Positions 15,630 to 60,442 are shown, numbered from the stretch's first letter. The stretch is 64,000 nt of DNA from Candidatus Latescibacterota bacterium (GCA_965248435.1 OZ252100.1:3872001-3936000), one strand, 5' to 3'. Notes: generated by a model from the letters alone, not told the origin. Numbers and translations are program-made.

Positions 15630-15885
15630 AAAAGGACCTGAGTTTTTGGGTACCGGGAAGGCAAAACACGGGTGCCGGGGACCGTAAGACGGTGTTGCTT
15701 AGAGAAACGAACCAAATATTCCTGTTGACATCCCGCGGTTTTTAGGTTCTTTTTTTGCAGAAATTGTAGATTTTTCTGCACCCTAAACGATTTAGCCAAA
15801 CCGGACTTGAGTGAACCTTGACATCGCGTGAAACAAAGGGATCGCCTTCTTCTACTCGCCGGGAAGACCAGAAGGAGGATTCACG

Positions 15886-17538
15886 GTGAGAGCATCACTT
15901 CTTAGGCGTTGGACTGTCGTGACGGTCGTCGGACTGGGCTGCTTTGCGTGCGGCAAAGACCAATCTCTCTCGCCCGGAATCGAGCGAGCAGGGGGCCTTG
16001 GAAAGCCCGCTGTTAAGGCAGCTGTGAACCATCGTTTGGTTGTGACTGTAACGGTGATTCAGGCCGGTGAGCCGGCATCGGGCGTGGAAGTTGCGTTCTC
16101 TCGCTCCATCTCCGGTCGAGCAGCCGACTACAGGTGGCAGGGCACAACGGACGAGAATGGCGAGGTGGAGATCGAGATTACGGCTGATCCGACGGGACAG
16201 TTCGGGCGGGTGGGGACGACCGGCTATTATCTCGCGATGGCCACCGAAACTGCAAGCGAAGAGGTCTTGGAGAAATGGGGCAGTATCCCGATCAACGATG
16301 GAGAGACGGCAGAACTGATTCTGGAGGTCGGGAGGCGAGCCTTCTTTAGACAGGATTTGAGAGGCAGGTTCGATCTTCGGACGCTTGGTCCCATTCCTTA
16401 TCCTTCGGACAACGCATACGATCCGCAAAGAATCGCTCTGGGAAAGCTGCTCTTCTACGACCCGATCCTGGGGGGAGAGAAAGACGTTGCTTGCGGGACC
16501 TGTCATTTACCGGGATCTGCCTTTGCCGATGGTCGTCAATTCGGTGCAGGCGTGAGTGGTGTAGGCCTGGGTAAAGACCGTGAGCTTTCTAACCTATCTA
16601 TCTCCGGCGATGAAATCCTGCTCGAGCCCAGGAATACGATGACGATTTATAACACGGCGTTTAATGCAGACGAGGGTGGCCTTCCTTCCGCCTTCGGGTT
16701 TTTTGCTGTGGATGGTAAAGCCAGGGGGCTGGAGGAGCTGGTTACGATTCCCATCGCTAATCGGGTCGAAATGCGGGGAGATGCCTACTCCGAGGAGGCT
16801 GCCCTGGATAGTGTGGTTGCAAGGCTTCGAACGGTTCCCGAATACGTTCAGCTTTTCCAGGAGGCCTTCCCGGCAGAGGCGATGCAAACCGGGGGAACGG
16901 CCGTCATCGACGGTTCCACATACAGTCGGGCGCTAGCGGCCTATGCGCGAGAATTGGTCACGCGAGACTCACCCTACGATCGCTATGTAAAAGGTAGTGA
17001 TGGCGCGCTAAGCGACGAACAGAAATTGGGCCTGGAGTTGTTCTTCACCAGGGCCAAGTGTTCCGTCTGTCACAACGGACCGATGTTGAGCGACTACCGG
17101 TTCATCCGTCAAGGGGTGCCCCAGGTAGGTGAGGGAAAAAGCTCGGGGGACGACAGGGGTCGGGAAGAATTTACCGGAAACCCTCTAGACCGGTATAAAT
17201 TCCGCACGCTGACGATTCGGAATGTTGAGCTGACCGCGCCCTACATGCACGACGGTTTTTTCGAAACGCTCGAGGAAGTCGTCCGATTTTATAACGATGG
17301 CGCTCGGCCACGACATCCTGTGGTGGTAGATGATGTGCTGGAGCCCATTCTGATCGAGCCTCTGGGCTTGACCGATGAGGAGATAGACGCCATCGTCGAG
17401 TTCATGAAGGCGTTGACCGATCCGGGAACGGCCCTGGATCCCTTCCTCGTGACCGTTCCGGACGAGGTCCCCAGCGGACTCACCCCGCTCATTGGGGTGA
17501 GTGCGGTAGGAAAAATCGCTTCGGGGCCTGGAAGATAG
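15886..17538 (+). CDS. Di-heme cytochrome c peroxidase/MauG-family protein with N-terminal lipoprotein-like extension
   Basis: LGKLLFYDPIL, CGTCH, CSVCH, RNVELTAPYMHDG, FYN. Confidence 0.9.
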   Translation: MRASLLRRWTVVTVVGLGCFACGKDQSLSPGIERAGGLGKPAVKAAVNHRLVVTVTVIQAGEPASGVEVAFSRSISGRAADYRWQGTTDENGEVEIEITADPTGQFGRVGTTGYYLAMATETASEEVLEKWGSIPINDGETAELILEVGRRAFFRQDLRGRFDLRTLGPIPYPSDNAYDPQRIALGKLLFYDPILGGEKDVACGTCHLPGSAFADGRQFGAGVSGVGLGKDRELSNLSISGDEILLEPRNTMTIYNTAFNADEGGLPSAFGFFAVDGKARGLEELVTIPIANRVEMRGDAYSEEAALDSVVARLRTVPEYVQLFQEAFPAEAMQTGGTAVIDGSTYSRALAAYARELVTRDSPYDRYVKGSDGALSDEQKLGLELFFTRAKCSVCHNGPMLSDYRFIRQGVPQVGEGKSSGDDRGREEFTGNPLDRYKFRTLTIRNVELTAPYMHDGFFETLEEVVRFYNDGARPRHPVVVDDVLEPILIEPLGLTDEEIDAIVEFMKALTDPGTALDPFLVTVPDEVPSGLTPLIGVSAVGKIASGPGR

Positions 17539-17567
17539 CGTTCTCTCTCCGATCGCAAGAAATCGAA

Positions 17568-17598
17568 AGGGCCTGCACCCTTATAGGTGCAGGCCCTG
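17568..17598. terminator. Hairpin between convergent genes (probable terminator)
   Basis: AGGGCCTGCACC-7nt-GGTGCAGGCCCT. Confidence 0.7.
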
Positions 17599-17612
17599 AA
17601 TATTTGTAGTCG

Positions 17613-25113: not shown

Positions 25114-25147
25114 GACAATGAACACCTTTCACAAAGGAAGATACGCC

Positions 25148-26158
25148 ATGAAATGGATTGTATGCAGTCTGACGGTCCTGGTGTTCGCTGCCGCAGCTGT
25201 GGTTCCGCAGGTGTCGGCGCAGGACCTGCCCTTCGAGACCACGGGGGCGATCTTAAACGAAGACATCGAGGACGTAGACCGTTCCAGCAGGCAGATCCCG
25301 ACCACGTTCCACTTCCTGAAGATCACGCCGACCGCTCGGCTGGCCGCGATGGGCGGGGCCTACACGTCGGTGGCCGACGGGATGGACGCGATCTTCTACA
25401 ACCCGGCCGGCATCGCCAACATCGAGCGGTTCGGGTGGACGTTCGGGTATACGGACTGGTTCCTGGACATGAAGTTCTACTCGGCCGCGGTCGCGATCAA
25501 CACGAAGTTCGGGGTCGTCGGACTCTCGGTGCTCAGCCTCGAACTCCCCGACGTGGAACAGAGAACGACGCTGAGGCCTGGGGGCATGGGCACGATGCTG
25601 GACCTGGGCGACACGGCCGTCGGGCTCCACTATGCCTATCGGATGACCGACAAGATGTCGGCGGGCGTCCAGATGCGTTACGCCAAGTCCAAGCTGGGTC
25701 TGGATCAGGAACTAACGGGGTGGCTGGTGAGCGCCGGGACGGTGATGCACACCGGGTTCGAAAGCCTTCGGATCGGGATGGGCATCAAGAACCTGGGCGG
25801 AAACACGAGCGCGATCGGCACGTTCGAGTCGCGGATGCCCGCGACCTTCAACGTGGGCGCATCCGGCGAAATCATGGGCGACCTGGGCGACCCGGTCTCC
25901 CTGACGGTCTCGTTCGAAGGGTCCTACCACATGGACTCCAACCAGCGCTATCACGCGGGTGCGGAGCTCTGGCTGAGGGAGATGATCGCGATACGCGCCG
26001 GAAACAACTTCGAGTATGATGCGCAGAAGTGGGCTGTCGGCGCCGGGCTCAGGGGGAACTTCCAGGGCCGCCACATTTCGGTCGACGCCTCCTATTCCGA
26101 GCTGACGGAGGAGCTGGACCACCAGCCGATCCGGTTTACTGTGAGCGGCGAGTTCTAG
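25148..26158 (+). CDS. PorV/PorQ family outer-membrane protein
   Basis: FLKITPTARLAAMGGAY, FYNPAG, terminal Phe. Confidence 0.88.
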   Translation: MKWIVCSLTVLVFAAAAVVPQVSAQDLPFETTGAILNEDIEDVDRSSRQIPTTFHFLKITPTARLAAMGGAYTSVADGMDAIFYNPAGIANIERFGWTFGYTDWFLDMKFYSAAVAINTKFGVVGLSVLSLELPDVEQRTTLRPGGMGTMLDLGDTAVGLHYAYRMTDKMSAGVQMRYAKSKLGLDQELTGWLVSAGTVMHTGFESLRIGMGIKNLGGNTSAIGTFESRMPATFNVGASGEIMGDLGDPVSLTVSFEGSYHMDSNQRYHAGAELWLREMIAIRAGNNFEYDAQKWAVGAGLRGNFQGRHISVDASYSELTEELDHQPIRFTVSGEF

Positions 26159-26212: not shown

Positions 26213-26250
26213 AAACAGCCGCCCGGAGCGTACGCTCCGGGCGGCTGTTT
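26213..26250 (+). terminator. Rho-independent terminator
   Basis: Perfect palindrome AAACAGCCGCCCGGAGCGTACGCTCCGGGCGGCTGTTT followed by a T-rich tail. Confidence 0.85.
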
Positions 26251-26298
26251 GTTTGTTCTATCCCCTGTTGAGAATTGGCATTATCTTGATGGCTAGGC

Positions 26299-27000
26299 CG
26301 GGAACCGGGACACCAGAACACGGGAACCGGGACACCAGAACACGGGAACCGGGACACCAGAACACGGGAACCGGGACACCAGAACACGGGAACCGGGACA
26401 CCAGAACACGGGAACCGGGACACCAGAACACGGGAACCGGGACACCAGAACACGGGAACCGGGACACCAGAACACGGGAACCGGGACACCAGAACACGGG
26501 AACCGGGACACCAGAACACGGGAACCGGGACACCAGAACACGGGAACCGGGACACCAGAACACGGGAACCGGGACACCAGAACACGGGAACCGGGACACC
26601 AGAACACGGGAACCGGGACACCAGAACACGGGAACCGGGACACCAGAACACGGGAACCGGGACACCAGAACACGGGTACCGGGGCATCAAAACACGGGTA
26701 CCGGGACACCAGAACACGGGAACCGGGACACCAGAACACGGGTACCGGGGCATCAAAACACGGGTACCGGGACACCAGAACACGGGAACCGGGACACCAG
26801 AACACGGGTACCGGGGCATCAAAACACGGGTACCGGGGCATCAAAACACGGGTACCGGGGCATCAAAACACGGGTACCGGGGAACCAAAACACGGGTACC
26901 GGGGCATCAAAACACGGGTACCGGGGAACCAAAACACGGGTACCGGGGCATCAAAACACGGGTACCGGGGCATCAAAACACGGGTACCGGGTACCGTAAG
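26299..27000 (+). repeat. Tandem array of 31 x 22-bp units CGGG(A/T)ACCGGG(ACACCAG/GCATCAA)AACA
   Basis: Counted directly: 26299-26980 = 31 units, the first 17 identical; no spacers. Confidence 0.97.
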
Positions 27001-27032: not shown

Positions 27033-27219
27033 TTCGCCAGCAGGAGCTGGCCACGAAAATGTTATGCCAACACCGTGAATCATTTTGTCGCCAACGGGAG
27101 TTGGCTCCTACCGGATAAAATTTCCAAATTCATTCGGTAGGAGCCGTCTCCTGACGGCGAACCATTCGATCACGGTGTGTTGTCTCTGACAACCGTACCC
27201 GCCGCCTCCCGGCGGCGAA
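27033..27219. repeat. 187-bp GTAG-type REP/REPIN-like palindromic element, copy 1
   Basis: Contains TCGCCAACGGGAGTTGGCTCCTAC and GTAGGAGCCGTCTCCTGACGGCGA; near-identical copies at 43486 and 46773. Confidence 0.88.
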
Positions 27220-27321
27220 CATTTACTCAATGTCGAAGGGCCAAGATTTCGTTCGAACCAAGATCCCCGGTACCCGAAATCGGGTCACAGATCAGTTGAT
27301 TTGGTGTAAGGAGGGTAATCC

Positions 27322-28845
27322 ATGAGGGTTCAGGTTCCAGGCTCAGAAAACGTCGTGAACATCGGCACGCGCAAGCAGCTGTTCGTGGATGACCACATCA
27401 TCGAGACGACGCGGTGGATATCGCCTCGCTCGTGTGAAACTGCCCGATGGCTGCAGCCCCCTGCACGCCCACGCGCTGACCTGGATGGATGGAGCGAAGG
27501 GGTCGATCGGATCGAGGACGACATTCCAGGGCACCTGCTGAGGGCGACGGCGTTCGTGACCCGGATCATCAATCAGCCAGAGCGCTACGAGGGCAATCCG
27601 ATCATGGGGAAGGAACGGCCCTGGGAGGGGGAGTCCGGCCCGTGGCCGACCGGGATCACGTACGATGAGGAGGACGAGATCTGGAAGATGTGGTACCTGA
27701 GCCTGACTCACGAAGACGAGGGCCGGAGGCACGTCTACAACTGTTTGTATGCGACTTCAGAGGATGGCATCACCTGGGACCGACCTGAGTTGGGCATGGT
27801 GAAGGACAGCGCGGGCAACGACACGAACATCGTTCACGAGGGCAAGATCCAGTTCGCCTTCAAGGACCCGAGGGCCGGAGATCCTTCGAGGCGATACAAG
27901 ATGGGTGTCTCGAAGGCCTCCAAAGAGGGACTGCAGCACCCGATGGTCTACTACTCGCCGGACGGCCTCCACTGGACGCCCGACCCGGGGCCGTTCAGCC
28001 ACAACCGCGGAGATGAAACCCTGTCTGTGATGTACGACCCGCAGAGCAAGAAGTACCTGGGCTTTTGTCGTAACCGGTATCCCAAACCGACCCTTCGTCA
28101 CCGGACGGAGCGATCGCTCCTGAGGATCCAGAGCAACGACCTGGTCCACTGGTCGATGTCGGAGCCGATCATGGACAAGGATTCGCTGGACCCGTTCGAC
28201 ACAGACTTCTACGGCATGAGAGGGACATTCTACGAGAGCGTGTACCTCGGTTTCGTGAATGTTCATCATACTGCGAAGGACGATTTCGACATCTGGTTCG
28301 CCTACAGCAGAGACAGCTTTCACTGGGAGCGGATTCGGACAGGACCTTTCTTGCCCCTGGGCCCTGAAGGGAGCTGGGACCAGGGCCAGGTTTCGGCGGT
28401 GCAAGAGCCGATTCGGCTGAACAACGAGCTCTGGTTCTACTACACGGGCGTGGACGGATATCACGATGCGCGGGGCAGGGCAGCCGCTCTGGGCCTGGCG
28501 AAGCTGCGCGTGGACGGCTTCGTGTCGATCGACGCGTTCGAGAACACGCACCGGGGGAAGAATTACCCCCCGACGCTCCTCACAAAGCCGCTCTACTCGC
28601 CGGGCAACAGGCTGGAGGTAAACGTGGATGCCTCCAAGGGGTTCATCGAGGCCGAGCTGTTGAACGTGGACGGGTATCCGATAGAGGGTTATTCGAATGA
28701 CGACTGCGACACGTTCAAGGGAGACAGCCTGGCGCACACGTTCACCTGGAAAGGGAGGTCGGATATCGGAGATCAGGTTCCGGTAAGGATTCGGTTTACG
28801 ATGAATAACGCGAAGCTTTATGCGTTGCAGATTCCTGAGGCGTAG
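27322..28845 (+). CDS. Beta-propeller glycoside-hydrolase-like protein (GH32/43/130-like), paralog 1
   Basis: KQLFVDD, WKMWY, YATSEDGITW, SPDGLHW, SRDSFHW, AKLRVDGF. Confidence 0.75.
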   Translation: MRVQVPGSENVVNIGTRKQLFVDDHIIETTRWISPRSCETARWLQPPARPRADLDGWSEGVDRIEDDIPGHLLRATAFVTRIINQPERYEGNPIMGKERPWEGESGPWPTGITYDEEDEIWKMWYLSLTHEDEGRRHVYNCLYATSEDGITWDRPELGMVKDSAGNDTNIVHEGKIQFAFKDPRAGDPSRRYKMGVSKASKEGLQHPMVYYSPDGLHWTPDPGPFSHNRGDETLSVMYDPQSKKYLGFCRNRYPKPTLRHRTERSLLRIQSNDLVHWSMSEPIMDKDSLDPFDTDFYGMRGTFYESVYLGFVNVHHTAKDDFDIWFAYSRDSFHWERIRTGPFLPLGPEGSWDQGQVSAVQEPIRLNNELWFYYTGVDGYHDARGRAAALGLAKLRVDGFVSIDAFENTHRGKNYPPTLLTKPLYSPGNRLEVNVDASKGFIEAELLNVDGYPIEGYSNDDCDTFKGDSLAHTFTWKGRSDIGDQVPVRIRFTMNNAKLYALQIPEA

Positions 28846-29267
28846 AGAATGGTCACTCAATTGCGGATTGCGGAATGGGGATTGCGGATTGAAAATGGCT
28901 GGATCACGAAAGGGCACGAAAGTCCACGAAGGAAAGTGAGAATTAAGAGTTCTAGGTCATTGAATCACTACTCCGTATTTGTCATTCCGAAGCGTCAGCG
29001 AGGAATCTCAACAGGCAACGGAACAGCCGTTACTTCGGGACGGGATTCGGTGAGTCCATCACTCTTGAGATCCCTCGTCACACGGCTGCTCAGAGGGTTA
29101 AGAAAGCATCTTAAGGACGCGAAGTGGCTCCTCGGGATAGACAAATCGGGTACGTTGCTTGTGTATATGTTAATGCGTGATGAATCACCAATCCGCAATC
29201 CGAAATCCCAAATCCGCAATTGGATAGCGGATCACTCTGTTTTTTCACTTATAAGGAGTAACGAGTC
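28841..29267. repeat. Composite spacer: inverted ATTGCGG heptamers around a GTCATTCCG..GGAATCTC palindrome pair
   Basis: Forward heptamers 28858-28892, reverse 29189-29222; near-identical copy at 30769-31196. Confidence 0.9.
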
Positions 29268-30773
29268 ATGAACTTACAGATTCCAGGTTCAGATCTCATC
29301 GTGAACATCGGGACGCGGAAGCAGCTGTTCTTCGACGATTACATCCTTGAAACGACGCGGTGGATCTGTCCGCGGCATTCCGAAACCGGTCGGTTTCTCC
29401 AGCCGCCCGGTCGCAGCACCCGAACCGATCTGGATGGATGGAGCGAAGGGGTGGACCGGATCGAGGGAGACGTGCCGGGACACCTGCTGAGAGCGACGGC
29501 GTTCGTGACCCGGACGGTAAACCAGCCCGAGCGGTATGAAGGCAATCCGATCATGGTGAAGACCGAAACGTGGGAGAAAGACGCCCCGCATCCGTGCAAG
29601 ATCATGTACGACGAGGAGGACGGGATCTGGAAGATGTGGTACCTGGGCCTGAAGGACCACATCACACATCAATATTTTCTGATGTATGCCACATCGAAAG
29701 ACGGGTTCGAATGGGAGAAACCGGACCTGGGGCTGGTGAAGGATGACGCGGGGAACGACACGAACATGATCATCGACGGAAAGTTCACGACCATTTACAA
29801 GGATCTTGAAGCCGACCCTTCCAGGCGCTACAAGATGGGGGGCTCGAGGCGGACGGATGGCGTGCAGCATCCGACGCTTTACCATTCGCCCGACGGTTTT
29901 CACTGGACGCCGGACCCCGGGCCTTTCAGCGACACTCGCGGAGATGAAAACTTCGGATTTATCCACGACCCGGAGAGCAAGAAGTTCATCGCGTTCTGTC
30001 GAAATGTCTATCCCAAACCGATGCTGGTTCACAGGACGGAGCGAAGGGTCTACCGGATGCAGAGCAACGATCTGCTGCACTGGACGATGTCAGAGCCCGT
30101 TATCCAGAAGGACGAACTGGATCCGCCCGACACCGACTTCTACGGCCTGGGATGCATGTTCTACGAGAGCATTTACGTTGGATTCGTGTCGGTCCACCAG
30201 ACCGCGATAGACGACTTTAAGACCTGGCTGGCCTTCAGCAGAGACAGTTTCAACTGGCATCGAATCAGGAGTCGACCGTTCCTTCCACTGGGACCCGAAG
30301 GCGGCTGGGAGTGGGGCATGGTTGGGTGTGGGCCCCCGCACCGGGTGGGAGATGAACTCAGGTTCTACTATTCGGGCAGGGACGGGCTGCACGACCAGCA
30401 GGGCAAGAATACCGGGATCGGGATTGCCAATCTGCGTCTGGACGGGTTCGTGTCGATGGATACGTTCGAGAACAAACATCGAACGAAGAACTACCCGCCG
30501 ATGCTGATGACCAAGCCGCTCTACTCCCCGGGGAATCGACTCGTCGTGAACGCCGATGCGACAGACGGATTCATCGACGCCGAGTTGTTGGACGTGGACG
30601 GGTATCCGATTGAGGGTTACTCGAGCGAGGACTGCGATACGTTCGAGGGAGATAGCCTGGCGCACACGTTTACCTGGAAAGGGAACCCGGATATCGGAGG
30701 GCGCCTTCCTGCCAGAGTTCGATTCACCCTGAATAACACGAAATTGTATGCTTTACAGATTCCTAAGGCGTAG
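29268..30773 (+). CDS. Beta-propeller glycoside-hydrolase-like protein, paralog 2
   Basis: Full-length similarity to paralog 1. Confidence 0.75.
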   Translation: MNLQIPGSDLIVNIGTRKQLFFDDYILETTRWICPRHSETGRFLQPPGRSTRTDLDGWSEGVDRIEGDVPGHLLRATAFVTRTVNQPERYEGNPIMVKTETWEKDAPHPCKIMYDEEDGIWKMWYLGLKDHITHQYFLMYATSKDGFEWEKPDLGLVKDDAGNDTNMIIDGKFTTIYKDLEADPSRRYKMGGSRRTDGVQHPTLYHSPDGFHWTPDPGPFSDTRGDENFGFIHDPESKKFIAFCRNVYPKPMLVHRTERRVYRMQSNDLLHWTMSEPVIQKDELDPPDTDFYGLGCMFYESIYVGFVSVHQTAIDDFKTWLAFSRDSFNWHRIRSRPFLPLGPEGGWEWGMVGCGPPHRVGDELRFYYSGRDGLHDQQGKNTGIGIANLRLDGFVSMDTFENKHRTKNYPPMLMTKPLYSPGNRLVVNADATDGFIDAELLDVDGYPIEGYSSEDCDTFEGDSLAHTFTWKGNPDIGGRLPARVRFTLNNTKLYALQIPKA

Positions 30774-31196
30774 AGAATGGTCACTCAATTGCGGATTGCG
30801 GAATGGGGATTGCGGATTGAAAAGGCTGGATCACGAAAGGGCACGAAAACCCGCGAAGGAAAGTGAGAAATAAGAGTTCTAGGTCATTGAATCACTCCTG
30901 CCGCCCCCTATTTGTCATTCCGAAGCGTCAGCGAGGAATCTCAACAGGCAACGGAACAGCCGTTACTTCGAGACAGGATTTAGTGAGTCCATCACTCTTG
31001 GGATCCCTCGTCGCCCGGCTGCTCAGAGGGTTAAGAAAGCATCTCAAGGACGTGAAGTGGCTCCTCGGGATGACAAATCGGGCACGTTGCTTGTGTATAT
31101 GTTAATGCGTGGTGAATCGCCAATCCGCAATCCGAAATCCCAAATCCGCAATTGGATAGCGGGTCACTCTGTTTCAGTTATAAGGAGTAACGAGCC
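30769..31196. repeat. Second copy of the composite spacer
   Basis: Aligns by eye along its length with 28841-29267. Confidence 0.9.
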
Positions 31197-32714
31197 ATGA
31201 ACTTACAGATCCCAGGTTCAGATCTCATCGTGAACGTCGGCACGCGCAAGCAGATGTTCTTCGACGACTATATCTTGGAAACCACGCGGTGGATTTGTCC
31301 GCGGCACTCCGAAACCGGTCGGTTTCTCCAGCCGCCCGGACGCAGCACCCGTACAGATCTGGACGGATGGAGCGAAGGGGTGGACCGGATCGAGGAAGAC
31401 GTGCCAGGCCACCTTCTCAGGGCGACGGCGTTCGTGACCCGGACCGTGAATCAACCGGATCGGTACGAGGGCAACCCGATCATGGTGAAGACCGAACCGT
31501 GGGAGAAGGACGCGCCGCATCCGTGCAAGATCATGTACGATGAGGAGGACGGGATCTGGAAGATGTGGTATCTCGGCGTGAGTGCTGTCAGCACGAAGGA
31601 GTATTATGACTGGTACTTCCTGATGTATGCCACGTCGAAAGACGGATTCGAATGGGAGAAGCCGAAGCTGGGGCTGGTGAAAGACGACGATGGGAATGAC
31701 ACGAACATGATCATAAACGGCAAATTTACGACCATCTACAAGGACCCGGAAGCCGATCCGTCCAGACGCTACAAGATGGGAGGCTCGAGAAAAACAGAAG
31801 GTGTGCAGCATCCCACGCTCTACTATTCGCCCGACGGCTTCCACTGGACGCCGGACCCGGGGCCTTTCAGTGAGACTCGCGGCGATGAAAACTTCGGGTT
31901 TATCCACGATCCGGAGAGCAAGAAGTTTATCGCGGTCTGTAGGAATATCTATCCGAAGCCGATGCTGGTTCCCAGGATAGAGCGAAGGACCTACCGGATG
32001 CAGAGCAACGACCTGCTCCACTGGACGATGTCAGAGCAGATCATCCAGAAGGACGAACTGGACCCGCCAGACACCGACTTCTACGGCCTGGGATTCGCGT
32101 TCTACGAGAGCATTTACGTCGGATTCGTGTCAGTCCACCACACCGCAAGAGACGACTTTCAGACCTGGCTGGCCTACAGCAGAGACAGCTTCAACTGGCA
32201 TCGACTCAGGAGCCGACCGTTCCTGCCCCTGGGACCAGAAGGCAGCTGGGAGTGGGGCATGGTGGGGTGCGGGCCCCCGCACCGGGTGGGGGATGAGCTC
32301 CGGTTCTACTATTCAGGGCGGGACGGGCTGCACGACCAGCAGGGTAAGAATACCGGGATCGGGATTGCCGACCTGCGCCTGGACGGGTTCGTGTCGATGG
32401 ATACGTTCGAGAACAAACATCGAACGAAGAACTACCCGCCGACGCTGATGACCAAGCCGCTCTACTCCCCGGGGAATCGACTCGTCGTGAACGCGGATGC
32501 GAGGGACGGATTTATCGACGCCGAGCTGCTGGACGTGGACGGGTATCCGATAGAGGGTTACTCGAAGGAGGACTGCGATACGTTCGAGGGGGACAGCCTG
32601 GCGCACACGTTTACCTGGAAAGGGAATCCGGATATCGGAGGGCGCCTTCCGGCCCGAGTTCGATTTACCCTGAATAACACGAAGCTGTATGCGCTGCAGA
32701 TTCCCAAAGCGTAA
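31197..32714 (+). CDS. Beta-propeller glycoside-hydrolase-like protein, paralog 3
   Basis: Very close to paralog 2. Confidence 0.75.
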   Translation: MNLQIPGSDLIVNVGTRKQMFFDDYILETTRWICPRHSETGRFLQPPGRSTRTDLDGWSEGVDRIEEDVPGHLLRATAFVTRTVNQPDRYEGNPIMVKTEPWEKDAPHPCKIMYDEEDGIWKMWYLGVSAVSTKEYYDWYFLMYATSKDGFEWEKPKLGLVKDDDGNDTNMIINGKFTTIYKDPEADPSRRYKMGGSRKTEGVQHPTLYYSPDGFHWTPDPGPFSETRGDENFGFIHDPESKKFIAVCRNIYPKPMLVPRIERRTYRMQSNDLLHWTMSEQIIQKDELDPPDTDFYGLGFAFYESIYVGFVSVHHTARDDFQTWLAYSRDSFNWHRLRSRPFLPLGPEGSWEWGMVGCGPPHRVGDELRFYYSGRDGLHDQQGKNTGIGIADLRLDGFVSMDTFENKHRTKNYPPTLMTKPLYSPGNRLVVNADARDGFIDAELLDVDGYPIEGYSKEDCDTFEGDSLAHTFTWKGNPDIGGRLPARVRFTLNNTKLYALQIPKA

Positions 32715-32742
32715 TGCCGTGGATCGAAAAATCAAAACACGG

Positions 32743-32860
32743 GCCCTCACCCTGCCTCGCTTCGCTCGGCATCCCTCTCCCATATATGGGAGAGGGAAAA
32801 AGCATCTTGCTATACCCTCTCCCCTCTCCCACGTGTGGGAGAGGGGCCGGGGGTGAGGGC
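32743..32860. repeat. CCCTCACCC..CCCTCTCCC/GGGAGAGGG..GGGTGAGGG palindromic element
   Basis: Copies at 48253-48395 and 50240-50360. Confidence 0.88.
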
Positions 32861-32950
32861 CTTAAGCCTATGAATTTTCGAACCCCGGTACGTGGTTCCC
32901 GGTACCCGAAATCAGGTACAGATCCCTCGATTCTGATGATAAGGAGCATG

Positions 32951-34690: not shown

Positions 34691-34936
34691 AGGCCGGGTA
34701 CCGGGAAAGCAAAACACGGGTACCGGGTGCCGCAAAAGAACGGGTCACCGAATCGCGGATTGCAGATTTCGGAATGAAAAGCAGAATCGATTGAGGCAAG
34801 TAAATTACGAAACGAATAATCAATCGCGAATCCGGAACTGAATTTTCGATCCCCGGACCCCGGTACCCGGTACCCGGTACCCGGTACCCGAAATCGGGAA
34901 GCAGGCTACATGATGATGGGGATGAGGGAGCCAGCG

Positions 34937-37420: not shown

Positions 37421-37635
37421 TAGCGGGTACCGGGAAATCAAAAACACGGGTACCGGGTACCGTAAAACCGTGGATCGCGGATCGTGAATCGTGGATCGGA
37501 AAGCGGCCAGATAGAACGCGGCCGTGCATCTGGTAGGAGCCGCCTCCCGGCGGCGAATCTTCACGTGGTAATCGTGTTGGTGATGGTTCGAACCCCGGTA
37601 CCCTGTACCCGGTACCCGGAATTCAGTGATGCGAA

Positions 37636-39609: not shown

Positions 39610-39920
39610 GGGCGTCATTCAATTGCGGATTGCGGAATGGAAGACCGGGTATCGGGAAAGCAAAACACGGGTACCGGGTACCGTAGAATCTGTATCTCAC
39701 GAATACTGCAATAGTGGAGACCGTTCGTCTCGCCTGTCCCGAGCTTGTCGAGGGGAGTGCCCCGAGCCCTTCAAAACGTTTTAGTTCTCAGAGGGCGAGG
39801 GGTTTATCGAGAGACAAGGATCGCCGAATGGGTGGTGTCGGCTGGCCTGGCCCCTCGATACACCCGCGAGATTATTCGGCCTTGGGAAAACAAAACCTTC
39901 ACCCTTAAAGGAGTTCCATC

Positions 39921-41348: not shown

Positions 41349-41353
41349 GGGAA

Positions 41354-41406
41354 CGGGTACCGGGAATCAAACACGGGTACCGGGGATCGGGTACCGGGTA
41401 CCGCAA
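41354..41406 (+). repeat. GGGTACC repeat, left arm
   Basis: Same motif after stop codons near 15648, 26299, 34695, 37424, 39646, 45223, 48229, 50216, 53974, 56176, 59019 and 60245. Confidence 0.92.
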
Positions 41407-41798: not shown

Positions 41799-41830
41799 GA
41801 ATCTCAAATTTGAAATCAGGACAAATTGGT

Positions 41831-41879
41831 TTTTCGAACCCCGGACCCCGGTACCCGGTACCCGGTACCCAAAATCGGG
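41831..41879 (-). repeat. GGTACCC repeat, right (inverted) arm
   Basis: TTTTCGAACCCCGG..(GGTACCC)n..AAATCGGG; also at 27265, 32875, 34843, 37587 and 54126, each shortly before a start codon. Confidence 0.92.
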
Positions 41880-41918
41880 TAGCTGACCACTTGGTGGCGA
41901 TGAGGAGGGCTATACAAG

Positions 41919-43424
41919 ATGAGGTTGGAAGTTCCCGGCTCGGAACTGATCGTGAACATCGGGACGCGAAAGCAGCTGTTCATCGATGACTATATCCTCG
42001 AGCGGAGTCGATGGATCACGCCCCGACTCGCCGAGACGGCTCGCTACATTCAGCCCCCGGCGCGAGACCGGAGCGATCTGGACGGATGGACGGAGGGGGT
42101 GGATCGGATCGCGGGAGACGTTCCGGGTCACCTGATTCGGGCGACATCCTTCGTGACGCGGACCCTGAATCAGCCTCAGCGGTTCGAGGGCAACCCGGTC
42201 ATGAAGCGTGCCTATCCGTGGGAGGGGAAGTCAGGGCCGTGGCCGACGAGCATCATCTACGACGAAGAGGAAGGCATCTGGAAGATGTGGTACAATGGCC
42301 TGACCCTGGAGGACGTCCCGGTCGAAAGGTTTCTCTACAGGTGTCTCTACGCCACCTCCAAGGACGGCATCAGCTGGGACCGGTCGCCCCTGGGCCTGCA
42401 CAAGGACGAAGACGGCAACGATACGAACGTCTTCTACTGGGGCAAGGGACAGTATATCCTCAAGGACAAAGAGGCCGATCCTTCCAGGCGGTACAAGATG
42501 GTCTACTCCACGCGAGGAAAGGAGGGGCTGCAGCAACCGATGGTCCAGCATTCCCCGGACGGCCTTCACTGGACGGAGGATCCCGGGCCCTTTAGCCACG
42601 GCCGTGGAGATGAAAACCTGAGCGTGATGTATGACCCGGTGAGCAAGAAGTATGTCGGGATCTGCCGCAACGTCTATCCTAAACCGATGCTGGTCCACAG
42701 GACGGAACGATCCATCTTCAGGATGCAGAGCAATGATCTGATCCACTGGTCCACACCCCTGCCGATCATCGACAGGGACGAGCTGGATCCGCTGGATTTG
42801 GACTTCGAGGGGATGTGGGGGATGTACTATGAGGGCATGTACCTGGGCTTCCTGAGGGTCAGCCACACCGCGCCCAGCTCGATGGACAGCTGGTTCGCCC
42901 ACAGCAGAGACGGGTTCCACTGGCAGAGGCCGAGGACCGGGCCGTTCTTTACCTGGGGACCGGAGGGGAGCTGGGACTCGAAATCGGTGTCGATCTTGAC
43001 CCACCCGAATCGGGTGGGCGACGAGCTCTGGGTCTACTATTCGGGGTCGAACCACGAAGACACGGCTGTTGGGCTGGCCAAGCTGCGTCTGGACGGGTTC
43101 GTGTCGATCGATGCCCCTCCCAACACTCGCCATCCGAAGAGCAGCCCGGCCACGCTGATGACGAAGCCCCTCTACTCTCCCGGCAATCGGCTGGTGATCA
43201 ATGCGGAAGCTCCCGAGGGCAGTATCGAGGCCGAGTTGTTGAGCGTGGATGGCGTCGTCATCGATGGTTACTCGAGGGAAGACTGCGACAGCTTCAGAGG
43301 AGACAGCCCCGCGCATACCGTCACGTGGAAAGGGAGGGGGGATATAGGAGAGGGTATTCCTGTGAGGATTCGTTTTTATATGGAGAAGGCGAAGCTTTAC
43401 GCATTGCAGATTCCCAAGACGTAA
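41919..43424 (+). CDS. Beta-propeller glycoside-hydrolase-like protein, paralog 4
   Basis: Full-length similarity to paralogs 1-3. Confidence 0.75.
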   Translation: MRLEVPGSELIVNIGTRKQLFIDDYILERSRWITPRLAETARYIQPPARDRSDLDGWTEGVDRIAGDVPGHLIRATSFVTRTLNQPQRFEGNPVMKRAYPWEGKSGPWPTSIIYDEEEGIWKMWYNGLTLEDVPVERFLYRCLYATSKDGISWDRSPLGLHKDEDGNDTNVFYWGKGQYILKDKEADPSRRYKMVYSTRGKEGLQQPMVQHSPDGLHWTEDPGPFSHGRGDENLSVMYDPVSKKYVGICRNVYPKPMLVHRTERSIFRMQSNDLIHWSTPLPIIDRDELDPLDLDFEGMWGMYYEGMYLGFLRVSHTAPSSMDSWFAHSRDGFHWQRPRTGPFFTWGPEGSWDSKSVSILTHPNRVGDELWVYYSGSNHEDTAVGLAKLRLDGFVSIDAPPNTRHPKSSPATLMTKPLYSPGNRLVINAEAPEGSIEAELLSVDGVVIDGYSREDCDSFRGDSPAHTVTWKGRGDIGEGIPVRIRFYMEKAKLYALQIPKT

Positions 43425-43485
43425 GTGCCGTGGATTGTGGATCGTGAATCGTGACTGGGAAAAGCAGGTGGTCCTGATACGCGGG

Positions 43486-43672
43486 TTCGCCAGCAGGAGC
43501 TGGCCACGAAAATGTTATGCCAACACCGTGAATCTTTTTGTCGCCAACGGGAGTTGGCTCCTACCGGATAATATTTCCAAATTCATTCGGTAGGAGCCGT
43601 CTCCTGACGGCGAACAATTTGATCACGGTGGGTTGTCTCTGACAACCGTACCCGCCGCCTCCCGGCGGCGAA
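43486..43672. repeat. 187-bp REP/REPIN-like element, copy 2
   Basis: Near-identical to 27033-27219. Confidence 0.88.
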
Positions 43673-43700
43673 TATCGGATGATAAGGAGGGTCATACCAG

Positions 43701-45203
43701 ATGAGATTAGAAATCCCTGGTTCAGAACTGATCGTGAACGTCGGGACGCAAAAGCAGCTGTTCATAGATGACTATATCATCGAGCGGTCGCGGTGGATCA
43801 CGCCCCGACTCGCCGAGACGGCCCGATATATTCAGCCCCCCGCGCGAGATCGCAGCGATCTGGACGGATGGACGGAGGGGGTGGATCGGATCGTGGGAGA
43901 CGTCCCGGGTCACCTGATCCGGGCGACCAGCTTCGTGACGCGGTCCCTGAATCATCCGGAGCGGTTTGAAGGCAACCCGGTCATGAAGCGTGCCTATCCG
44001 TGGGAGGGGGAGTCTGCGCCGTGGCCGACGAGCATCATCTACGACGAAGAGGAAGACATCTGGAAGATGTGGTACAACGGCCTGACCACGGTGGACGTTC
44101 CGAAGCGGGCGTGGCATTATCGGTGTCTCTACGCCACCTCCAAGGACGGCATCAACTGGGATCGGTCGCCCCTGGGGCTGCACAGGGACGAAGAGGGCAA
44201 CGATACGAACGTCTTCTACTGGGGAAAAGGGCAGTATATCTTCAAGGACAAAGAGGCCGATCCTTCCAGACGGTACAAGATGGTCTACTCCACGCGAAGC
44301 AAAGAGGGGCTGCAGCACCCGATGGTCCAGCATTCCCCCGACGGCCTTCACTGGATAGAGGACCCCGGCCCTTTCAGCCACGGACGTGGGGATGAAAACC
44401 TCGGGGTGATGTATGACCCCGTAAGTAAGAAGTATGTCGGGATCTGCCGAAACGTCTATCCTAAACCGGTCCTGGTCCACAGGACGGAACGGTCCATCTA
44501 TAGGATGCAGAGCAATGACCTGGTTCACTGGTCCACGCCCGTGCCCATCATCGACAGGGACGAGCTGGATCCGATGGATATGGACTTCGAGGGGATGGGG
44601 GGGATGTTTTATGAGGGCATGTACCTGGGCTTCCTGAGAACCAGCCACACCGCGCCCACCAAGATGGACAGCTGGTTCGCCCACAGCAGAGACGGGTTCC
44701 ACTGGCAGAGGCCGAGGACCGGGCCGTTCTTTACCTGGGGACCGGAGGGGAGCTGGGACTCGAAATCGGTGACGATCTCGACCCCGAAACGGGTCGGGGA
44801 CGAGCTCTGGGTCTTCTATTCGGGGTCGGACGACGAAGACACGGCTGTTGGGCTGGCGAAGCTGCGGCTGGACGGGTTCGTGTCGATCGATTCCCCTCCC
44901 AACACTCGCCACCCGAAGAACAACCCGGCCACGCTGATGACGAAGCCCCTCTACTCTCCGGGCAATCGACTCGTGATCAATGCCGAGGCCAACCAGGGCA
45001 GTATTGAGGCCGAGTTGCTGAGCGTGGATGGTTTCGTGCTCGATGGTTATTCGAGGGAAGACTGCGACAGCTTCAGCGGAGACAGCCCCCCGCATACCTT
45101 CACGTGGAAAGGAAATGCGGATCTAGGAGAGTGTCTTCCTGTGAGGGTTCGTCTTTATATGGAGAAGGCGAAACTCTACGCGTTGCAGATACCTCAGGGT
45201 TAA
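43701..45203 (+). CDS. Beta-propeller glycoside-hydrolase-like protein, paralog 5
   Basis: Very close to paralog 4. Confidence 0.75.
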   Translation: MRLEIPGSELIVNVGTQKQLFIDDYIIERSRWITPRLAETARYIQPPARDRSDLDGWTEGVDRIVGDVPGHLIRATSFVTRSLNHPERFEGNPVMKRAYPWEGESAPWPTSIIYDEEEDIWKMWYNGLTTVDVPKRAWHYRCLYATSKDGINWDRSPLGLHRDEEGNDTNVFYWGKGQYIFKDKEADPSRRYKMVYSTRSKEGLQHPMVQHSPDGLHWIEDPGPFSHGRGDENLGVMYDPVSKKYVGICRNVYPKPVLVHRTERSIYRMQSNDLVHWSTPVPIIDRDELDPMDMDFEGMGGMFYEGMYLGFLRTSHTAPTKMDSWFAHSRDGFHWQRPRTGPFFTWGPEGSWDSKSVTISTPKRVGDELWVFYSGSDDEDTAVGLAKLRLDGFVSIDSPPNTRHPKNNPATLMTKPLYSPGNRLVINAEANQGSIEAELLSVDGFVLDGYSREDCDSFSGDSPPHTFTWKGNADLGECLPVRVRLYMEKAKLYALQIPQG

Positions 45204-45623
45204 TATAGAGGATGTGAGTATCCGGGTACCGGATACGGTAGATCGGCTACAGAGACCTGACGGTTTAGGTGCGACGCAAGCGTCGCCCCGGGGGAACCGA
45301 AACACGGGTACCGGGTACCGCAAAGGCAGATGGTCACCACATAGGGATTGAAAGTTATTTTGGAATCCGACCTGAAGTGTTAAGTTAGAAGGAAAAAAAG
45401 GGGGGTATCTGTCTCTCATTTGCAAATTGTTGAGTTATCATACGAATAAATGATAGGTTAGGGCTTTTGTGGGCTGCAGAATGCTTGTCCTTGAAACTTG
45501 GAAGAAGAGGTCTTGCGAAGTCGTCGTACCGCAGTCCGGAACCGCGGAGGCCGGCTTCTCGTTCTGAAGCGCGACTGATCGCATGAATAAATCTCTCAGG
45601 ATTCGTCTGGTCTCCACTCAACG

Positions 45624-48223: not shown

Positions 48224-48442
48224 AGGACCGGGTACCGGGAAGGCAAAACACGGGCCCTCACCCTGCCTCGCGGAGTTTATCCTGAGCCTGCCGAAGGGCT
48301 CGGCATCCCTCTCCCATAAATGGGAGAGGGAACAAACATCTCGCAGAGCTTTCCTCCCCTCTCCCACGTGTGGGAGAGGGGCCGGGGGTGAGGGCCTTTT
48401 AAAATCCAATATCCAATATTCAAGGGCGACAGGAGGGGTGAC

Positions 48443-50188: not shown

Positions 50189-50429
50189 TGGCCGTGAATC
50201 GTAGATCGTAGAGACCGGGTACCGGGAAATCAAAACACGGGCCCTCACCCTGCCTCGCTTCGCTCGGCCTCCCTCTCCCATAAATGGGAGAGGGAACAAA
50301 CATCTTGCAGAGCCTTTCTCCCCTCTCCCACGTGTGGGAGAGGGGCCGGGGGTGAGGGCCTAGAACATTGATTAATATCGAATATCCGATATCCAATAAT
50401 CAAGGACGATGACAATGCGTGAGCACCAA

Positions 50430-53970: not shown

Positions 53971-54162
53971 TAACGGGTACCGGGGAATCAAAACACGGGT
54001 ACCGGGGATCGGGAAAACCAAAACCAGAAATCACCGCAGAGGACGCAGAGAAAACTCGGGTAGCGGGAAACCAAAACACGGGTACCTGGGATCGGGTAAT
54101 GGCAAAATTTGGATTGAAATTGATCTTTCGAACCCCGGTACCCGGTACCCGGTACCCGAACA

Positions 54163-56169: not shown

Positions 56170-56364
56170 AGAGAACGGGTACCGGGAAGGCAGAACACGG
56201 GAAGGCAGAACACGGGTACCGGGAAGGCAGAACACGGGTACCGGGTACCGCAAAACCCTGGGATCGACGTTCGTCATGTGTTTCATCGGGGACATCCTCA
56301 GTCATAGCTTATCCGTAGGGCTTCAGCGAAATCGTGTCTTTCAGGATCGCGTCTGGCATTGCTT

Positions 56365-57838: not shown

Positions 57839-58042
57839 GACTGTTTTAAGTAAGTAGCAACAAAGAATAGTATAGCATATTTAAGAAAGTAATAAAGTAT
57901 CTTAGCATGCAGTAGATCCTGGGCGACGCCGAGGCAATACCCTTCCCGATTTTCCGGGACAAGTGTCTTCCTTTCTCAGGCGAAGGAGTGGCACACGAGG
58001 TGATAGCAGATCGCGTTCAAGGACACGTTTGGAGGGACACCG

Positions 58043-58966
58043 ATGATGAACTTGGAGGCATTGAAAGGACGGGTGAAGGGGATCTTTCCTCCCATCACCA
58101 CTCCGCTGACGGAAACTGAGGAATTCGATGAACAGGGCATGCGGCGGCTGGTTCAGTACCTGATCGATAGCGGGGTGCACGGACTGTTCGTGCTGGGATC
58201 GACGGGGGAATTCGCGACCTTTACCCAGGCAGAGCGGCAGCGGATCATCGAGGTGGTGGTGGATGAGGCGGCCGGCAGGGTGCCGATCCTGGCGAATGCG
58301 ACAGAAATCGGGACCAAGAAGACCGTGCAAAGTGCCAGGATGGTGGCGGAGACGGGGGCTGACGCGATGGTCCTGATGGTCCCCTTCTATTTCACGCACA
58401 CCGCCTCGGAGGTGATGCGTCACTTCAAAGATGTGACCGCATCGGTCGACCTCCCGGCCTTTATCTACAACAATCCAGAGAGCACCAAATTCAACCTGAC
58501 GCCGGAGATGCTGGAGGAGCTGTGCCAGGAGGGGCGAATCGTCGGGATCAAGGACAGCAGCAACGACTTCGCCCAATTTCAGGAGCTGCTCAGGCGGTTC
58601 AAAGGCTCGAAGGATTTCGAGGTCTTCCAGGGGGAGGAACATCACCTCGCAGCCAGCATACTTTTGGGCGCAGCAGGCGCGGTGCTGACCGTCGCCAACG
58701 CGGTTCCAAAGCTCTGCGTGGCGCTCTACGAAGCAGGCGTGAACGGGGAGATCGAAAGGGCGTTCTCTCTGCAGGATCGATTGATGAAGGCCTTCGGGAT
58801 GTTCCAGATCCCGGGCGCGTTGACGGCCGGTTCGGCAATCGGTGGGGTGAAGGCCGCTCTAGCCCTGCGTGGGATATGCGGGGGGACCGTGAAAAAGCCT
58901 TTTGAGCCGCCACCCGAAACAGATGTCAAAAGGATCAAGGAGATTCTGGACGAAGTTGAGAAGTAA
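58043..58966 (+). CDS. Dihydrodipicolinate-synthase-family aldolase/lyase
   Basis: GSTGE, YNNP, GIKDS. Confidence 0.92.
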   Translation: MMNLEALKGRVKGIFPPITTPLTETEEFDEQGMRRLVQYLIDSGVHGLFVLGSTGEFATFTQAERQRIIEVVVDEAAGRVPILANATEIGTKKTVQSARMVAETGADAMVLMVPFYFTHTASEVMRHFKDVTASVDLPAFIYNNPESTKFNLTPEMLEELCQEGRIVGIKDSSNDFAQFQELLRRFKGSKDFEVFQGEEHHLAASILLGAAGAVLTVANAVPKLCVALYEAGVNGEIERAFSLQDRLMKAFGMFQIPGALTAGSAIGGVKAALALRGICGGTVKKPFEPPPETDVKRIKEILDEVEK

Positions 58967-59150
58967 AGATAGGGTAATAGCAATTGCGGATTGCGGATTT
59001 GGGATTGCGGAATAAAACCGGGTACCGGGAAAGCAACACAAGGGTGCCGGGGATCGGGAAAACCAAAACCAGAAATCACCGCAGAGGCCTGTCCCGGCAA
59101 TGCTTTTGAGCCGGGACGCAGAGAAAATCGCGTAACGGAAGGAGAGAGAC

Positions 59151-60221
59151 ATGAACGTTGCACTGCTGGGAGCGGGCGAGCCTCACTTCGACGGGCACTT
59201 GAAGACGCTGCAGGTTCTGCCCGAGGTAGAAGCCGTTCACGTTTGGGGCGATATCGTCGAGGCGGTGGAAGCGCTCGAAGCGGACAAACCGGCGAAAGTA
59301 GAGACGGTAACGTCCGACCTGGATGATCTGCTGGCGCGAGTGAAACCGTCCTTCGCGATCGCCACGACACGCAACAACCGGAAGCCGGCCATTTTCGCAC
59401 GCCTGCTCGAGGCCGATATTCACCTGATGGCGGAAAAACCTATCGCGAACACCGGCCGGGAGGTCGCCAGCCTCGTGGACCTGGCCGAAAGCCGGGGACT
59501 CGCGCTCGGGACCTGCTATACGAATCGCTACCATCCCGTCATACAGGAGGCGCGCCGGCTGGTCGCGGAGGGACTCATCGGTCCTATGATGTCGATGGAG
59601 ATCAGGATGCTGACGACCCAGCCGGGAATTCGGGACCCGAAGAAATGGCTGTTCCACAAGGAACACGCCGGCGGGGGGATTCTGGCCTGGCTGGGATGCC
59701 ACTACATCGACCTGATGCGCTACATCACCGGTGATGAAATCGTCTCCGTCCAGGCGGAGGTGGCCACGCGAAGCGGCGAAGAGATTGACGTGGAAGACAT
59801 TGCCGTCCTGTCCCTGCGATTCCGATCGGGCGCGGTTGGGTCGCTCCACAATGGATATACCATGGCCCTGAAAGGGGAGCGCTACGGGGACATGCCCGCC
59901 TACGATACGTACATGGGCATCAACGGCCAGCTCGGACGCATCTACTGGGATGATGTCGGCCAACCCAGCCACATGTTTGCCGAGACGACACACGAAGCGT
60001 GGGCTGACTCGCCCGTGAGAGAGTTCGATTTCACCGTCGCGGAGTCGCCCGCCTACAGCGGGGTCCACGGCGAGGCGTTTATGCGGGACTTCATCCACGC
60101 GGCCCAGGGGAAGGGCGAGGTCCCTGCCTCAGGTCGCGACGCCCTGCAGGTTGCCCGGGTGATCGATGGGGCTTACGCGTCGAGTGCTACGGGTCGTCGC
60201 GTTGATATTGAAGCACCATGA
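59151..60221 (+). CDS. Gfo/Idh/MocA oxidoreductase
   Basis: HLMAEKP, GGGILAWLGCHYID, VEDIA. Confidence 0.9.
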   Translation: MNVALLGAGEPHFDGHLKTLQVLPEVEAVHVWGDIVEAVEALEADKPAKVETVTSDLDDLLARVKPSFAIATTRNNRKPAIFARLLEADIHLMAEKPIANTGREVASLVDLAESRGLALGTCYTNRYHPVIQEARRLVAEGLIGPMMSMEIRMLTTQPGIRDPKKWLFHKEHAGGGILAWLGCHYIDLMRYITGDEIVSVQAEVATRSGEEIDVEDIAVLSLRFRSGAVGSLHNGYTMALKGERYGDMPAYDTYMGINGQLGRIYWDDVGQPSHMFAETTHEAWADSPVREFDFTVAESPAYSGVHGEAFMRDFIHAAQGKGEVPASGRDALQVARVIDGAYASSATGRRVDIEAP

Positions 60222-60442
60222 GTGAGGAAGACTCCCGCCACGACCGGGTACCGGGAAAGCAAAACACGGGTACCGGGTACCGTAGAACCGGAGAGCCATT
60301 CAATTGCGGATTGCGGATTTGGGATTGCGGAATGGAAGGCAGGATCACGAAGGGCGTCACGAAATTCCTCGTACAAAAAAATGAGGATTCTGAGAATCGG
60401 AGGGTCACCCCCCGTTAGGCCTTCGGTGACAAGGGAGCCGCC

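Follow-up and report, generated by a model that had tools for sequence, protein, structure and literature searches.

The stretch of DNA considered here (the window) comprises 64,000 nt of a Candidatus Latescibacterota genome, designated G000, and window coordinates are counted from its first letter. Among its features is a three-part cassette, situated between co-directional genes and arranged in the order left arm (L), protein-coding gene, right arm (R), with R made of inverted heptamers. The open reading frame (ORF) of this cassette, at 41430-41798, had been noticed in an initial annotation as a four-helix gene, and matches the PF05635 profile (23S_rRNA_IVP) with E 7.2e-34 and 116.7 bits against a cut-off of 33.8; its product is a bAvd-like four-helix bundle. 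L is a sense-strand feature located a few bases past the upstream stop codon, and in nine of ten clear cases in G000 R lies 18-63 nt 5' of the next ORF. It is rather probable that L and R are the two arms of a PF05635 cassette resembling an intervening sequence (IVS), of which decayed copies and solo L arms also persist.

As read from the window loci, the L consensus is CGGGTACC-GGGAAAnCAAAACA-CGGGTACCGGGTACCG-YAAAAC, in which a CGGGTAC heptamer and a conserved A-rich 15-mer form a 22-nt unit. R consists of TTCGAACCCCGG followed by two to four GTACCCG heptamers, and is thus an inverted heptamer run. The heptamer GGGTACC is present in 59 copies in the window, as compared to 5.4 expected from shuffles (none of 100 reaches 59), with 44 copies on the plus strand and 15 on the minus strand. 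Six R loci hold 14 of the 15 minus-strand copies, the remaining copy being the GGGTACCC palindrome within the gene at 34519. In addition, AAAACACGGGTACC, with up to two mismatches, occurs 43 times in the window and on the plus strand only, versus 0.24 expected. TTCGAACCCCGG is exact at four R loci (32877, 37587, 41833 and 54127) and carries one mismatch at the R locus 34845; as a stand-alone motif with up to two mismatches it is not enriched in the window (15 versus 11.5 expected). The initial annotation had listed 13 L loci, all on the plus strand and 3' of plus-strand ORFs, as well as six R loci shortly 5' of start codons, and every one was found on reading the sequence, with L at 15648, 26299-26991 (an array), 34696, 37425, 39650, 41355, 45306, 48230, 50217, 53975, 56177, 59020 and 60246. 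The cargoes that it had placed between the arms were likewise seen, namely a REPIN (a hairpin-forming doublet of repetitive extragenic palindromic, or REP, sequences), the CCCTCACCC palindrome, ATTGCGG-like heptamers, a single REP, the four-helix gene, and CACCGCAGAG.

Eleven PF05635 loci are present in G000, and seven of these have L upstream and R downstream. Two of the eleven are framed by other inverted heptamers (ATTGCGG upstream with CCGCAAT downstream, and CGTCGTT with AACGACG), and two are accompanied by direct heptamer arrays. A DNA profile (nhmmer) made from the five intact cassettes, each of ~550 nt, recovers five full copies in G000, one copy split by a 1.23-kb insertion of the IS630-like type of insertion sequence (IS), another that is cut short at model position 277, a further one that keeps only the 3' untranslated region (3'UTR) and R, and six R-only matches within model positions 480-567. 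Together with the arms alone, these copies form a decay series that runs from intact to IS-cut, 3'-truncated, and 3'UTR plus R. The insertion, at G000:C1:3044555-3045783 (locus L051), carries two overlapping transposase ORFs and splits the cassette at model position ~317; we take it to be IS630-family-like from reading its translated ORFs. A frameshifted PF05635 gene with the CGTCGTT/AACGACG arms is found at G000:C1:772018-772365, between tRNA-Ala(cgc) and a sequence that we assume, by eye only, to be like the signal recognition particle (SRP) RNA. No cassette was found at 23S rRNA, as all L/R cassettes lie between protein-coding ORFs, and the window has no rRNA match.

The two arms are predicted to pair with one another. 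L/R pairing is predicted in three gene-less brackets (z = -5.1, -3.5 and -4.0) and also in the gene-bearing segment 41346-41880, in both the minimum-energy and centroid folds (z = -2.45), with 11 A-rich nucleotides bulged out of the predicted stem. There are ~16 R loci in G000, all on the plus strand between 3.02 and 4.0 Mb, and nearly all have L upstream. L was counted genome-wide by a Hamming scan of its 25-nt core with up to five mismatches, which misses indel variants; the 135 L loci obtained are a lower bound, since the scan recovers only 10 of the 13 window loci. The genome-wide check suggested by the initial annotation finds that L and R co-occur more than by chance, with seven cases in one intergenic region versus 1.5 expected (P 1.7e-4, in a conservative count that takes the cargo gene as a gene of its own), and L is 5' of R in all eight co-occurrences. 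Brackets are nevertheless a minority, with ~16 R loci versus at least 135 L loci, and most L are solo; about 100 L arms are solo or expanded.

The exact 22-mer is present in only one other genome of the collection, that of the same-genus sister species G001, which is a Candidatus Latescibacterota metagenome-assembled genome. A search for the 15-mer AACACGGGTACCGGG in 41 genomes, namely G000 plus 40 relatives, gives 121 copies for G000, 18 for G001, one for G006 and none for the other 38. The segment 1-160 kb of G001 is syntenic, in inverted order, with 3.75-3.97 Mb of G000, and orthologous sites are referred to here as numbered pairs. The elements turn over between these two relatives: whole mosaics are found in G000 only at pairs 42, 44, 106 and 113, and in G001 only at pairs 24 and 39, and the heptamer copy number differs between orthologous L arms at pair 35. 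For instance, the entire 286-nt mosaic around the solo L at 39645..39687 is missing at the orthologous G001 site (pair 106). The possibility that the element supplies the stop codon of the upstream gene was considered at the four G000-only sites; the reading frame could be placed at pairs 42 and 106, not at 44 and 113, and at both of the former the stop has the same position in the two species, so that it is native and not supplied by the element. No target-site duplication is visible at the G000/G001 presence/absence sites.

G001 contains at least five L...R brackets that enclose 27-30 N-terminal codons or the 3' end of a PF05635 gene, and a tblastn search over the G001 stretch returned a single PF05635 remnant and no intact gene. 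In a related seawater contig, 133 nt stand in place of the window's 548-nt cassette. In another seawater contig, a PF05635 homologue is found upstream of the orthologue of the gene at 27322, where the window has only the 22-nt array, the REPIN and R. PF05635 is present in 25 of the 41 genomes across the order, and inverted heptamer-like arms (score of at least 22, within 130 nt) accompany 11 of 24 PF05635 loci of the relatives, as compared to 3 of 142 slid control windows. The brackets had been proposed to be gene-less derivatives of one element, and this proposal is supported by the identity of the PF05635 gene, the seven L/R loci out of eleven, the decay series, the G001 remnants, and the seawater contig.

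The orientation of L was assessed against 4465 genes called in G000 with our own crude ORF and codon-score model, for which start codons are approximate. Of 135 loci, 128 are intergenic, and 114 of these have a co-oriented gene 5' of L (binomial P 1e-20). The core starts 10-15 nt past the stop codon in 38 of the 114, the full arm then beginning 1-6 nt past the stop, and no more than 40 nt past the stop in 68. L also points with replication at 119 of the 128 intergenic loci, and in convergent gaps, where either direction follows a gene, 29 L point with replication and 3 against it. Expressed per gene, L is found behind 100 of 2726 leading-strand genes versus 4 of 1739 lagging-strand genes, an odds ratio of 16.5. 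When paralogous upstream flanks are collapsed to 120 clusters, 100 of 114 point with the gene, 105 of 114 with replication, and convergent gaps are split 28 versus 3. The GC-skew minimum is at 3.018 Mb and dnaA is at 3.082 Mb, 65 kb apart; setting the origin at dnaA instead flips six loci and the replication bias stays. In G001, the direction of L agrees with the sign of the local GC skew in four of four separate regions, a comparison that is confounded by gene direction. The initial annotation had also raised an operon-punctuation and mRNA-processing code tied to transcription, and this idea is only partly supported: orientation relative to transcription is indeed non-random genome-wide (114 of 128), but L follows the direction of replication at least as closely (119 of 128). 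Neither this polarity nor the near-absence of L behind lagging-strand genes would be predicted by a general mRNA code of the host.

A narrower role for the host would be that of a 3'-end signal, whereby L is a sequence-specific RNA or DNA site after stop codons (a binding platform, a 3'-end stabiliser or an antisense block) and the cassette gene has simply settled next to it. Over 110 copies the core block is conserved to at least 90%, its start is held 10-15 nt past the stop in the 38 cases given above, and L is near-identical at orthologous sites of the two species where flanks cannot be aligned, all of which would be expected of such a signal. The antisense strand of L gives only weak matches of a 5-bp hairpin plus T-run, and no canonical plus-strand terminator was found in the L-bearing gaps between 27322 and 45203, and these too could be taken in its favour. 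However, a signal of this kind would have to serve ~4% of leading-strand genes and 4 of 1739 lagging-strand genes, to be gained or lost between sister species at conserved gaps (pairs 24, 39, 42, 44, 106 and 113), to expand to 31 tandem copies, and to occur in a single genus of the 41 relatives that were searched; there was also no Rfam match, either over the whole window at the gathering score or over 34600-42000 at E up to 1. We consider a host-serving signal unlikely on this balance. L is not an intrinsic terminator on the sense strand, where a GC-rich hairpin with a U-tract behind it would be expected, as no L is flagged on the plus strand and CGYAAAAC follows the core. Window 26213-26260, after ORF 25118-26158 and just 5' of the 22-nt array, does hold a canonical intrinsic terminator, a strong one with a 17-bp stem and a T-run, and the organism thus uses ordinary terminators.

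Period 7 is the commonest tandem-repeat period in G000 (900 of 3069 rows of Tandem Repeats Finder output), and 438 period-7 arrays reach at least 2.5 copies, 362 of them (83%) being intergenic. This abundance would suit a second account, in which the arms are purely slippage-born heptamer microsatellites of the G-quadruplex (G4) type, like those of Xanthomonas and Nostoc, with no mobile cassette, and in which polarity comes from selection on the placement of G4 or i-motif structures. In keeping with it, L has four GGG tracts spaced G3-N4-G3-N12-G3-N4-G3, heptamer number differs at the orthologous L of pair 35, and the positional grammar, the frequent inverted pairs and the copy number varying between species equal those of the GGGAATC and GGGGAYT repeats (PMC4692102). 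However, with G4 allowed in ViennaRNA, none of 105 minimum-energy folds of solo L contains one, and the GGUACC palindromes favour hairpins; solo L is predicted to form a hairpin of ~10 bp around an A-rich loop, with a mean of -13.6 kcal/mol as compared to -9.5 for shuffles. The best-conserved part of L is the A-rich spacer, which is dispensable for a G4, and slippage cannot account for at least 120 genes that are unrelated and yet are followed by one and the same 40-nt sequence. The Xanthomonas repeats, moreover, have no leading/lagging preference in the accessible text of the report that describes them, unlike L (PMC4692102). An origin by slippage alone therefore seems improbable. Other heptamer families of G000 also run with replication, as do 63 of 68 ATTGCGG arrays and 21 of 21 CGTGGAT-type arrays. 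ATTGCGG arrays are antisense in seven of eight gaps between lagging-strand genes, and the direction of this family is thus set by replication and not by transcription.

REP sequences, bacterial interspersed mosaic elements (BIMEs) and REPINs are short, extragenic, hairpin-forming repeats that follow gene ends, are mosaic in build and are oriented to the upstream gene, and in these respects they resemble L. A polarity oriented to replication is, in addition, what single-strand transposition by Y1 enzymes would lead one to expect from the IS608 literature. The arms could accordingly be of the type of REPs and their associated tyrosine transposases (RAYTs), or of MITEs (miniature transposable elements with inverted repeats), moved by a transposase encoded elsewhere, either Y1 HUH or IS630-family. 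G000 does have Y1_Tnp genes (five matches, of which two are full-length genes), GTAG-headed REPs, and an IS630-like insertion sequence. However, L lacks the GTAG head, and neither arm comes within 420 nt of the two full-length Y1 genes, which are flanked by other palindromes; a RAYT link of L and R was ruled out on this ground. The presence/absence sites are without visible target-site duplications, and the IS630-like element interrupts a cassette whose arms are not its own. A borrowed transposase is thus very unlikely as the mover of L and R. The classical REPs of G000 are separate repeats that are found as cargo inside L...R brackets. For instance, GTAG-headed REP/REPIN sequences (GGTAGGAGCCGCCTCCCGGCGGCGAA) are bracket cargo at window 27033-27230 and 37520-37560, and GTAGGAGCC occurs 43 times on the plus strand and 28 times on the minus strand of G000.

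Under the IVS-like reading favoured here, the cassette would be co-transcribed with its neighbours, as the lack of plus-strand terminators in the L-bearing gaps 27322-45203 suggests. L and R would close a stem of ~25 bp in the transcript, with the A-rich segment bulged, and RNase III, whose gene is present in G000, would cut this stem and separate the cistrons, by analogy with the intervening sequences of 23S rRNA. The double polarity points to a spreading or expansion of the arms that depends on single-stranded DNA. In a leading-strand gene, the sense strand is the one that transcription does not use as template and, at the same time, the one on which the lagging strand is made, and both processes would expose it; such exposure would explain why L is nearly confined to the ends of leading-strand genes. 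For the solo L arms, the likeliest reading is that they are leftovers, selfish or neutral, or else seeds, and not a code of the host.

Several observations do not sit easily with this scheme. None of 45 L-only nhmmer matches passes model position 115, and remnants of the gene are thus lacking from solo L. L is mostly solo and R hardly ever, an asymmetry that is not accounted for by random cassette decay. Wholly different arms frame one PF05635 gene of close DNA similarity (E 8e-49), so that arms and gene are not strictly co-inherited. Given these three points, L may be the primary dispersing unit or a preferred landing site, and not only a relic. At pairs 8, 19, 35 and 112, L is nearly identical in G000 and G001 and the adjoining intergenic DNA is unalignable, a pattern for which a host function would be as good an explanation as homogenisation. 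The hairpin predicted for solo L shows no compensatory changes (no double changes in the main stem), and in about one third of copies the first L heptamer is swapped for another module, a GC-hairpin; the conserved feature is therefore the block GGGAAAnCAAAACACGGGTACCGGG and not the pairing. All positions relative to genes rest, in addition, on the crude gene model. A bolder form of the scheme, doubtful but worth stating, is that the PF05635 cassette is mobile and spreads at the replication fork by way of single-stranded DNA folded into hairpins, with its four-helix protein, related to the retroelement accessory protein Avd, binding the arms, and that the polar heptamers of this and many other bacterial genomes are shed arms. 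If this were true, a single origin would underlie IVS elements, 'G4' heptamer repeats and the long-noted surplus of 7-nt tandem repeats in bacteria.

Table 1. Arms, cargo gene and related brackets in the window (positions from the first letter of the window).
Feature	Position	Strand	Remarks
Solo L	15645..15690	+	16 nt past stop of ORF 14088-15629; locus duplicated at G000 3050265
L array, 31.5 tandem 22-nt units	26299..26996	+	left side of bracket closing at 27253-27285
R, variant TTCGAACCAAGATCCCCGGTACCCG	27253..27285	+	~40 nt 5' of ATG 27322; cassette model positions 514-566
Second bracket family	28858..29222	+	ATTGCGG left, CCGCAAT right; ~300 nt enclosed, no Pfam match; twin 30786-31153
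Partial L AAAATCAAAACACGGG	32735..32745	+	truncated by CCCTCACCC palindromic element 32743-32868
R	32875..32915	+	cassette model positions 499-567
L	34693..34735	+	3 nt past stop of ORF ending 34690; pairs with R 34843-34895
R, four exact GTACCCG heptamers	34843..34895	+	~20 nt 5' of ATG 34910
L	37422..37465	+	directly past stop 37420; followed by CGTGGAT heptamers and REP
R	37587..37620	+	~16 nt 5' of ATG 37636 (DUF6785 gene)
Solo L	39645..39687	+	ATTGCGG heptamers 5' of arm; pair 106
L of intact cassette	41352..41405	+	4 nt past sulfatase stop 41348
Cargo gene, PF05635 23S_rRNA_IVP, 122 aa	41430..41798	+	profile match E 7.2e-34
R of intact cassette	41831..41875	+	~45 nt 5' of ATG 41919
L split by GC-hairpin module GGCTACAGAGACC...GCGACGCAAGCGTCGC between first heptamer and core	45224..45323	+	
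L ending after ACACGGG, CCCTCACCC element takes over	48227..48254	+	pair 112
L ending after ACACGGG, CCCTCACCC element takes over	50214..50242	+	pair 113
L, two copies with CACCGCAGAG in between	53972..54095	+	2 nt past stop 53970
R, three exact heptamers	54126..54162	+	immediately 5' of GTG 54163 (DUF6785 gene)
L, 2.2 copies of 22-nt unit	56174..56255	+	convergent gap, after leading-strand gene
Solo L, variant	59017..59050	+	ATTGCGG heptamers 5' of arm
Solo L	60243..60288	+	ATTGCGG heptamers 3' of arm

Two further modules are joined to L. A GC-hairpin module, GGTTACAGAGACCTGACGGTTTGGGGGCGACGCCTGCGTCGCCCC (window 45236-45290 and ~30 further loci in G000), takes the place of the first heptamer, and the fusion is always at GAGAAATCAAAACACGGG. 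A palindromic element of ~125-140 nt, GGGCCCTCACCC ... GGGTGAGGGCC, with inner hairpins CCCTCTCCCA..TGGGAGAGGG, is present at window 32743-32868, 48255-48392 and 50243-50363. In all three window copies its junction with L falls after AAAACACGGG and the rest of L is replaced; at the orthologous site of pair 19, G001 has an uninterrupted L. The cargo of the brackets 28858-29222 and 30786-31153 contains GTCATTCCGAAGCGTCAGCGAGGAATCTC, and both brackets precede paralogues (MNLQIPG...) of the genes behind R arms. In the case of the first solo L, window 15600-15800 and G000 3050220-3050420 are identical over the gene end, L and at least 95 nt downstream, which indicates a recent segmental duplication. 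The window also holds large tandem paralogue families, namely Pfam-less proteins of ~500 aa starting MRLQIPG, DUF6785/DUF6784 proteins, GH28/pectate-lyase-like proteins, and sulfatases. The palindrome GGTACC occurs 1105 times in G000, as compared to ~1700 by a hand estimate from base composition, and most copies are in a GGGTACC context; outside these repeats, this KpnI-type palindrome appears under-represented.

To our knowledge, PF05635 has been without a known function since its discovery in rRNA intervening sequences, and the heptamer repeats of bacteria, although repeatedly described, have never been explained. G000 unites the two, with gene-bearing, gene-less, solo and tandem-expanded stages all visible. 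It also offers objects for experiment, in the form of a 25-nt conserved core, a predicted stem with an A-rich bulge, and species pairs in which a given gap holds the element in one member and lacks it in the other. Annotators are advised to be cautious, in that repeats of this kind should not be taken by default for terminators or regulatory sites.

The closest precedent for the cassette is the IVS in the 23S rRNA of Coxiella burnetii, where the accessible text describes a 28-bp terminal stem, excision by RNase III, and variable heptamers 5' of the S23p ORF (PMC4990558). The two have in common a PF05635 family protein inside the loop, terminal inverted repeats that form a stem of ~25-28 bp with a mismatch or bulge (predicted in the present case), tandem heptamers in the 5' arm whose copy number varies between strains, and an ORF that decays as the arms persist (PMC4990558). 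Processing by RNase III has been demonstrated for the Coxiella IVS and would apply to the L/R cassette by analogy (PMC4990558). Unlike the Coxiella IVS as there described, the cassette is situated between protein-coding genes and not in helix 25 or 45 of 23S rRNA, one of its arms is multiplied, with at least 100 copies standing solo and tandem arrays reaching 31 units, and it has a strict polarity to transcription and replication.

The closest precedent for the arms is provided by the G-rich heptamers GGGAATC of Xanthomonas and GGGGA(C/T)T of Nostoc described by Rehm et al. 2015 (PMC4692102), for which the accessible text places the G-rich sequence no further than 50 bp past the stop when it is on the coding strand, and no further than 50 bp ahead of an ORF when it is on the non-coding strand. 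L and R are positioned likewise, with 68 of 114 L cores no more than 40 nt past the stop and R 18-63 nt before an ORF in nine of ten cases. Both kinds of repeat are composed of 7-nt G3 units, are mostly intergenic and lie between aligned ORFs, form inverted pairs, and vary in length between sister species (PMC4692102). In contrast, the Xanthomonas and Nostoc repeats are described as lacking a leading/lagging preference or origin-proximal clustering, whereas L points with replication in 119 of 128 cases; they prefer four units, whereas the unit of L is composite (7+15) and includes an A-rich spacer that is conserved; and G4 formation was demonstrated for them in vitro, whereas it is not favoured in silico for L (PMC4692102). 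No link to PF05635 is drawn in the accessible part of that paper (PMC4692102).

The TAACTGA direct repeats of Beggiatoaceae, Cyanobacteria and Bacteroidetes, found just upstream of start codons (MacGregor 2015; PMC4679880), are similar in being abundant intergenic heptamers whose position with respect to ORFs is fixed and whose phylogenetic distribution is patchy. In the available text, however, they are direct, with one inverted in 170, whereas here the main arm follows stop codons and inverted pairs enclose a gene (PMC4679880). A literature search limited to openly accessible main texts did not turn up any account of PF05635 genes that lie, outside rRNA, between arms made of heptamers. What is added here to the IVS elements and the polar heptamer repeats is a polarity to replication and a large family of solo arms.

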